Part shown: piece by piece, positions 28,467-28,676 of the stretch
How positions within the stretch are numbered: position 1 is the first letter of the stretch
Layout: every line of letters begins with the position of its first letter
Source: Escherichia phage EF1-1
Sequence record: PQ571289
DNA length: 64,000 nt
Direction: 5' to 3' (one strand)
Notes under the pieces: generated by a model
The model's input: the letters and a program-made list of their open reading frames with translations, nothing else
Database searches by the model: none
Told to the model about the DNA's origin: nothing
Program-made: the position numbers and the translations under genes

Positions 28467-28676
28467 TACGTTCATCAAGTGTGGTAACAGGGTCGTTGAC
28501 TTTTGTTAAGAGGGGCTTGCACTGCGGTAGTGTTAGAGACTACTTCTTCAGAGGTTAGCTACCAAAGAGGAAAAGGAATAGTCTCGGCTCAAGAACTTTT
28601 ACGCTGAAAGTTGGGCTTGGTCTTAGAGAATGTAGCGGTTCTCTACAATCGTCAGCGTCTCTGTTACCACATTTAC

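Follow-up and report, generated by a model that had tools for sequence, protein, structure and literature searches.

What lies between the first promoter and the first tRNA gene of the tRNA cluster in Escherichia phage EF1-1? In the 64,000-nucleotide stretch analysed here (record PQ571289; hereafter the window), ARAGORN and Rfam identify a cluster of 11 tRNA genes, all on the + strand, and a leader at the head of the cluster fills all of the space between an extended -10 sigma-70 promoter, P1, and tRNA-Met. We conclude that this leader is a genuine folded RNA, previously undescribed, and the founding member of a new family restricted to phAPEC8-like phages. As to what it does, on balance we favor the reading that it is an RNA gene of about 200 nt, which would be freed from the tRNA precursor, accumulate, and act in trans.

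The leader, promoter P1 and the tRNA cluster

The region from 28100 to 29200 is 99.5% identical to many genomes of Phapecoctavirus, a group of phAPEC8-like E. coli myophages within the subfamily Stephanstirmvirinae. The cluster is untranslated over about 2.2 kb, most of its spacers are tightly folded, and the features at its head are as follows.

28438..28467, + strand: promoter P1, with -35 TTGACA at 28438-28443, an 18-nt spacer, and an extended -10 TGtTAGGAT at 28459-28467
28474..28676, + strand: the whole element, a structured leader RNA of ~203 nt, reaching from the predicted start up to the last base 5' of tRNA-Met
28677-28751, + strand: tRNA-Met(CAU), downstream of the leader, predicted to be co-transcribed
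28754-28828, + strand: tRNA-Arg(UCU), downstream of tRNA-Met, predicted to be co-transcribed

The -10 element of promoter P1, TAGGAT, is preceded by TG, and 10 of the 12 consensus positions match. The window contains five instances of the pattern TTGACA-N14-16-TGNTANNNT, where 0.3 are expected, promoter P2 at 29025 being among them, and rV5-like phages are reported to rely on promoters of the sigma-70 consensus type, of which many have an extended -10 (PMC3606486). Judging from the promoter sequence, transcription would start near A28474, with the first paired base of the leader at about +4. Within the cluster there are three promoter-like sites, P1, P2 (29025) and P3 (29979), and one terminator-like hairpin (30702-30720), such that the promoter P1 unit contains only two tRNAs before the next promoter. 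Promoters P2 and P3 are positioned directly 5' of their first tRNAs, without a long leader; a 200-nt leader is thus not needed for tRNA transcription in this phage, which argues that the leader is more than a generic processing signal.

We note that promoter P1 is itself situated inside a 10-bp perfect hairpin (AACGTATCCT / AGGATACGTT, 28444-28472) that covers the spacer and the -10 element; in phage phiWec179 two pairs of this hairpin are changed on both sides, and one has become G.U. From its sequence, this could be the 3' hairpin of the upstream mRNA or an operator.

A long closing helix and a structured core

An earlier note on this DNA had described a 10-bp inverted repeat with arms at 28480-28489 and 28661-28670. 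The 3' arm, CTGTTACCAC, is at the position given (28661-28670), whereas the 5' arm, GTGGTAACAG, lies one base further to the right, at 28481-28490; the spacing between the arms, put at about 170 nt, counts out at 170 nt. The perfect repeat is 11 nt long, with TGTGGTAACAG at 28480-28490 and CTGTTACCACA at 28661-28671. A repeat of 10–11 bp is not by itself beyond chance, since about five perfect 11-nt inverted pairs within 350 nt are expected per 64 kb (64000 x 350 / 4^11), and other listed inverted pairs (I13, I24 and I25) are found in coding regions.

The repeat is part of a longer helix. When G.U pairs are included, 28477-28492 pairs with 28659-28674 over 16 bp, and beyond a U.U mismatch there are 7 more bp, between 28494-28500 and 28651-28657. 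The corresponding entry among the inverted repeats of the window has arms at 28477-28511 and 28640-28674 (35 nt, 77% complementary) and is the second-longest; the longest, at 27487-27668, is an AT-rich and imperfect repeat upstream of small early genes, with 56-nt arms that are 71% complementary and 70 nt apart. Between the first and last 30 nt of the leader there are 24 end-to-end pairs, compared to a shuffle mean of 4.5, and none of 200 shuffles has as many. The closing helix therefore has the dimensions of an RNase III substrate, that is, a quasi-continuous helix of about 20 bp or more.

The leader as a whole has a minimum free energy of -76.8 kcal/mol, compared to -53.2 +/- 4.0 for 200 dinucleotide shuffles (z -5.9, with 0 of 200 as good), and this bears out the proposal of the earlier note that the tRNA transcript opens with a structured core inside a long terminal stem. 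The reverse complement reaches only -53.9 kcal/mol, and seven invariant G.U pairs of the leader would be A.C mismatches on the other strand; both observations favor the + strand transcript as the functional form. When the leader and the tRNAs are folded together they form separate folds, the tRNA cloverleaf being kept, with a linker of 2 nt. The component parts are listed below.

28477..28500, + strand: closing helix P1, 5' arm, containing GTGGTAACAG; the helix is ~24 bp in all
28512..28516, + strand: inner junction helix, 5' strand, pairing with 28620-28624; one compensatory pair, three one-sided changes, 100% paired
28519..28533, + strand: hairpin P2 (alignment columns 52-56 with 62-66); two compensatory pairs
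28536..28585, + strand: hairpin P3, long, with internal loops (helices 4-7); three compensatory pairs
28586..28617, + strand: hairpin P4 (helices 8-9); one compensatory pair, AU to UA
28624..28645, + strand: hairpin P5 (helix 10); three compensatory pairs
28651..28674, + strand: closing helix P1, 3' arm, containing CTGTTACCAC; ends 2 nt before tRNA-Met

Hairpin P2 varies in sequence with its pairing kept (CACU/AGUG, CAUC/GAUG and CACA/UGUG). Hairpin P3 has an invariant apex, GGUUAGCUACC (28553-28563), and hairpin P4 contains two invariant blocks, UCGGCUCAAGAAC and UUUACGCUGAA. Hairpin P5 corresponds to the internal hairpin TAGAGAA/TTCTCTA of the earlier note; it is present, with its three compensatory pairs, but begins at 28624 rather than 28623, its strands being 28624-28630 and 28639-28645. 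The P5 loop keeps GUAGC (28632-28636), which is complementary to GCUAC of the P3 apex, and both loops are invariant in the alignment A3 described below, from which we read a candidate P3-P5 loop-loop pairing.

Conservation and covariation among three lineages

BLAST searches find the element in 70 phage records, 64 of them at 95% identity or more and six at about 80%, and searches via the upstream protein added one IMG/VR contig together with metagenome contigs. The alignment A3 represents three lineages: that of the window and phAPEC8, that of phiWec179 (L001) and PsgM04F, and the IMG/VR contig L006. The RNAalifold consensus contains 70 pairs, and 99.3% of the 420 pair cells are standard pairs. 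Compensatory double changes are seen in 10 of the 70 pairs, whereas shuffles give 5.4 +/- 1.5 (0 of 500 reach ten) and slid controls 0–3, figures that come from three lineages only, equivalent to 0.81 effective sequences in the covariance model R1, and the kinship of the sequences inflates the shuffle test. Covariation in related genomes, which the earlier note had put forward as the check on its proposal, is thus found. Taken together, the fold, the paired cells and the compensatory pairs indicate a true structured RNA.

The distribution of the changes is uneven. Only 3 of 48 columns vary in closing helix P1, compared to 46 of 151 in the core (Fisher p = 4e-4), and between the window and phiWec179 the closing helix is 96% identical, the paired columns of the core 76%, and the unpaired columns of the core 71%. 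The adjacent protein gene is 62% identical overall between the same two phages and 35% identical at third codon positions, and the whole element, with its loops, is therefore under purifying selection. By the same alignment, closing helix P1 is under sequence constraint that goes well beyond the needs of pairing. All of the covariation falls in the inner helices. The 10-bp inverted repeat of the earlier note does not vary in sequence, nor do 23 of the 26 pairs of helix 1, and the comparison thus speaks neither for nor against pairing of the repeat; the grounds for pairing in the closing helix, where covariation is absent, are thermodynamics and the analogy with other spacers of the cluster.

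Within the phAPEC8 clade there are few single-nucleotide differences, and these are mostly at loop positions or keep the pair (GC to GU, GU to AU). Single changes that break a pair are seen at 28488 and 28512 (phAPEC8_ev052), 28491 (nieznany and EP57), and 28642 (REC). phAPEC8_ev052 (L022) has three substitutions within 60 nt of promoter and leader, at 28456, 28488 and 28512, the broken pairs being C-G to G.G in closing helix P1 and G.U to U.U; the other records of the clade that were inspected have 0–3 changes, elsewhere in the element.

The substitution pattern also bears on whether the locus encodes a small protein. A 34-codon open reading frame with a TTG start spans 28503-28607, is annotated as a hypothetical protein in PsgM04F, ETEC-TG and WPEC1, and coincides with a CDS of the same span in EP57; the frame is open and of the same length in all three lineages. 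However, 13–14 of the 34 residues differ between lineages, many of them non-conservatively, and the nucleotide changes are exactly those that keep the RNA pairs. Moreover, no Shine-Dalgarno sequence is seen upstream by eye, the closing helix has the TTG start at its inner end, an invariant hairpin apex contains the stop codon, and most of the records inspected do not call the frame. We therefore rejected the coding reading on the substitution pattern; that a small protein is the function of the locus is highly improbable, and the CDS calls over 28503-28607 are probably spurious.

A second pattern emerges from comparison of phiWec179 with the contig L006. Their upstream genes are identical, with two differences in 1500 nt upstream, whereas the leader cores have 24 differences, nearly all of which preserve the structure. 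Over 3.2 kb, the differences are almost all confined to the core (24), tRNA-Met (3) and a tRNA-Ser(UGA)-like gene (~41). In these sequences the core, flanked by arms that do not vary, resembles a cassette that is exchanged or evolves fast, and the pattern indicates patchwise exchange or rapid evolution of single RNA modules.

Distribution and searches for relatives and targets

The element is found in Phapecoctavirus only. No Rfam family, be it YrlA, 6S, GOLLD, ROOL, a ribozyme or a riboswitch, matches 28474-28676 at gathering thresholds, nor at E <= 10 with permissive filters, and the Rfam search that the earlier note had suggested thus places the leader in none of the families it covers. Model R1 scores 236 bits at the leader, with everything else on the + strand of the window at 5 bits or less, and it matches neither the phi92-type loci nor Citrobacter phage Tr1, nor any of 80 IMG/VR loci sharing a 14-mer; we thus find no paralogue or distant homologue in the remainder of the window or in the loci scanned. 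Exact-pattern scans with the conserved blocks and the 5' arm recovered only the already known contig from IMG/VR and nothing from bacterial genomes, and the 14-mer scan of IMG/VR gave chance matches only.

Justusliebigvirus and Citrobacter phage Tr1 loci, collected via the upstream protein, are without the leader; in phi92, of a sister genus, the tRNAs follow directly after gp110 with no leader between. Since phi92 and Tr1 are without it, the element is dispensable for a tRNA cluster of this kind. The 5' end of the phi92 tRNA-Leu(UAA) gene (L004 3355-3372) shares the 10-nt sequence CAAGTGTGGT with the 5' end of the leader (28476-28485). The window phage has no tRNA-Leu and its gene order differs from that of phi92, and we regard this match as probable chance (estimated p about 0.02) rather than as a relationship.

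BLAST against E. coli genomes (words of 11 bases, E <= 1) finds no match to the leader, which is thus not a copy or mimic of a host sequence of at least ~20 nt. The longest antisense matches within the window are 13 nt, in non-conserved parts and as chance predicts, and we find no notable target or partner in trans by complementarity in the window or the E. coli genomes. Our literature search found no transcriptome or non-coding RNA study of Phapecoctavirus.

These searches are also relevant to a DNA-level role, in which the RNA would have no part and the locus would be, for instance, an origin, a palindrome bound by protein, or a small mobile insertion with the arms as its terminal inverted repeats. 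In favor of this, the arms are invariant and the core between them is sharply different in phages that are otherwise identical, as in a cassette, and the tRNA cluster is mosaic. Nonetheless, folding is asymmetric between the strands and the substitutions tolerate G.U pairs, both of which speak for the + strand transcript; the compensatory changes in four short inner hairpins are without a DNA-level rationale; and neither the window nor E. coli genomes, nor the bacterial and viral collections scanned by exact pattern, contain a second copy. We consider a purely DNA-level element very unlikely.

Other structured spacers and tRNA-like genes in the cluster

Four more spacers of the cluster are closed by stems: 28829-29015, 29245-29369, 29711-29795 and 30094-30191, the third having been delimited after its hairpin (29711-29792) was seen in the fold. 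They have 16–24 end-to-end pairs compared to shuffle means of 3–7, and their closing helices begin 1–3 nt from the flanking tRNAs.

28829-29015: stem-closed spacer from tRNA-Arg to promoter P2, AACATTTTAaCATGAAT ... ATTCATGgTAAAATGTT; z -3.8, 21 end-to-end pairs
29245-29369 (L004 3997-4129): 125-nt stem-closed RNA between tRNA-Ser(GCU) and tRNA-Tyr; z -5.4
29711-29792: long hairpin of 82 nt, just 3' of tRNA-Thr, end-paired
30094-30191: 24-bp interrupted stem with a ~45-nt pyrimidine-rich, mostly unpaired loop; z -5.7

The spacer at 28829-29015 is 82% identical in phiWec179 and has one compensatory pair in its closing stem; some records annotate an open reading frame here, and two 1-nt indels argue against it. 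The spacer at 29245-29369 has six compensatory pairs, three of them in the closing stem (eight sequences, phi92 included), is kept as far as phi92, and is also found in part in Citrobacter phage Tr1; by these sequence comparisons it is probably another unannotated RNA family, with a wider spread than the leader. It too is mosaic, being 73% identical in ETEC-TG, although the ETEC-TG leader is 100% identical. That several spacers are end-paired suggests a shared maturation logic, and by analogy supports the pairing of the closing helix of the leader.

Just behind promoter P2 is a tRNA-Ser(UGA)-like gene (29063-29155) with a long variable arm, which is missed by ARAGORN and whose sole Rfam match is to tRNA-Sec, at 37 bits where the gathering score is 47. 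The PsgM04F annotation gives it as tRNA-Ser and that of phi92 as a pseudo tRNA-Ser, and it is the second hypervariable patch between phiWec179 and L006. Two tRNA-sized spacers, 29546-29635 and 30430-30507, have paired ends and T-arm-like hairpins (GCAGGTATCGAATCCTGC and GCTGGTTCGAATCCAGC, respectively) with no tRNA call, and may be degenerate or unusual tRNA-like RNAs, recalling T4 RNA C.

Proposed processing and possible roles of the leader

In the reading we favor, that of an RNA gene freed from the tRNA precursor, we infer the start site, the processing by RNase P and RNase III, the accumulation and the activity in trans, and the course of events would be as follows. Host RNA polymerase would start at ~28474 at promoter P1, placing the element, tRNA-Met and tRNA-Arg in one transcript. 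The RNA would fold alone, with the ~24-bp closing helix joining its first and last nucleotides and, within it, a core of the inner junction helix and hairpins P2 to P5. RNase P cleavage is the established means of tRNA 5' maturation, and from this the cut at the 5' end of tRNA-Met would fall at 28676/28677, freeing the leader and forming its 3' end. Outside the helix, about 3 nt on the 5' side and 2 nt on the 3' side would remain unpaired, and the helix would shield the RNA against 3' exonucleases and 5'-end-dependent RNase E; with its ends locked in this way the leader should accumulate, as T4 RNA C and RNA D do. RNase III could also cut the closing helix, which is long enough as a substrate, trimming the RNA to its core. 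Binding of a protein or of a second RNA by the conserved loops would then provide the activity in trans. One feature of the predicted structure is less readily accommodated, in that RNase P could be impeded, not aided, by a helix that stops within 2 nt of the acceptor stem.

The closing helix could alternatively be the whole point of the element, acting purely in cis as an RNase III site in the manner of rRNA operon stems or the T7 R sites; a cut would remove the leader and leave a short single-stranded 5' tail for RNase P, and the core would be discarded. The helix has the length of a substrate (16 + 7 bp with one mismatch), stops 2 nt short of the tRNA, and is the most conserved part of the element; the other spacers, end-paired over 16–24 bp flush against their tRNAs, fit excision by a double-strand endonuclease, and T4 species 1 RNA is cut by RNase III in vitro. 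A core of 130 nt is more than a processing stem requires, however, yet four hairpins are kept here by compensatory changes, and the unpaired columns of the core are 71% identical compared to 35% at neighboring synonymous sites. Neither are the loose sequence requirements of RNase III an explanation for the near-invariance of 48 nt, and promoters P2 and P3 have no such leader before their first tRNA. We therefore regard a role confined to processing as an unlikely, if serious, alternative.

The position of the element could also suggest that it acts in cis during transcription, either in antitermination like the put sites of HK022 or as a compact fold that denies single-stranded RNA to Rho or RNase E. 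It begins at about +1 to +4 of the strong promoter P1, as a put-type element should, and what follows is a ~2.2-kb untranslated cluster whose spacers are mostly tightly folded. Against this, the tRNA arrays of promoters P2 and P3 are longer and have no leader of this kind, the promoter P1 unit has only two tRNAs before the next promoter, and the element is absent from phi92-type relatives. The HK022 put site consists of two hairpins in ~70 nt, and the leader, judged against this description, is unlike it in architecture. Such a role seems to us rather improbable.

Returning to the RNA gene acting in trans, we can speculate on the kind of activity. The leader might be a phage effector, serving as a decoy or inhibitor of a host RNA- or tRNA-targeting defense or as a determinant of phage competition, a suggestion that we put forward tentatively and consider improbable as a specific proposal. 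The variable hairpins (P2, mid-P3 and P5) may then set specificity, being swapped as a cassette between invariant arms; this idea arises because phiWec179 and L006 have two changes upstream and 24 mostly structure-preserving changes in the core. Separately, the loops GCUACC (P3 apex) and GUAGC (P5), and the palindromic UAGCUA, could by their sequence allow self-association into an RNA-only assembly, as a small counterpart of GOLLD and ROOL.

Comparison with known RNAs

In kind, the nearest parallels come from the tRNA region of T4, where two small RNAs, T4 RNA C and RNA D, have unknown roles (PMC3014915). Like these (species 1 and species 2, respectively), the leader is a small non-coding RNA in or against the tRNA cluster of a lytic coliphage and on the same strand as the tRNAs, and T4 RNA C, like the leader, folds well (z -4.6) with its ends paired. 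There are nonetheless several differences. First, there is no homology, model R1 with filters off giving at most 4.4 bits on the T4 tRNA region. Secondly, T4 RNA C carries a tRNA-like T arm, CCGGGUUCGAAUCCCGG, and the leader is without one. Thirdly, the T4 RNAs are at the 3' end of their cluster, whereas the leader is at the 5' head behind its own promoter, and at 203 nt it is larger than the T4 RNAs of 139 and 119 nt.

A precedent for activity in trans is 3'ETS-leuZ of the E. coli glyW-cysT-leuZ transcript, described as a tRNA precursor by-product that pairs with RyhB (PMC6191717, citing Lalaouna et al. 2015), and from this it follows that spacers of tRNA precursors can act in trans. As a 3' trailer, 3'ETS-leuZ has a terminator at its end and base-pairs with small RNAs, whereas the element described here is a 5' leader without notable complementarity in the window or in E. 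coli genomes, and no Hfq-type features are seen in it by eye.

GOLLD and ROOL are structured RNAs of phages and prophages, of unknown function and often next to tRNA islands, and many GOLLD members exceed 800 nt (PMC12286853). They are much larger than the leader, which has no match to them or to any other Rfam family even at E <= 10. They form homo-oligomeric cages, whereas for the leader oligomerization is speculation, prompted by the UAGCUA palindrome of the P3 apex.

RNase III processing stems, such as the rRNA operon helices and the T7 early R sites, resemble the leader in having a helix of about two turns that flanks an RNA module in a polycistronic non-coding transcript, but enclose rRNA or mRNA, whereas the helix of the leader, a predicted substrate, encloses a conserved fold instead. 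The bacterial Y RNA-like YrlA RNAs, present in some phages, have a long stem of the 5' and 3' ends that encloses a structured module. The leader shares this stem-enclosed arrangement, but is without a tRNA-like T arm and is not matched by Rfam YrlA, whose sole weak match (22.8 bits, gathering score 69) is on tRNA-Pro/Ile.

Implications

The phAPEC8-like phages are widely isolated, also in phage control work on pathogenic E. coli, and their genome records either leave the leader unannotated or give a doubtful 34-aa protein in its place. As a non-essential 200-nt element in a lytic coliphage, it is one for which deletion and compensatory mutants are easy to make. GOLLD and ROOL near tRNA islands show that phage tRNA regions host enigmatic RNAs (PMC12286853), and the conserved and covarying leader described here indicates that phage tRNA clusters can carry RNA genes other than tRNAs. 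That several spacers of the cluster share a closing helix of 16–24 bp flush against the tRNAs suggests a rule by which the precursor may be cut and passenger RNAs released.
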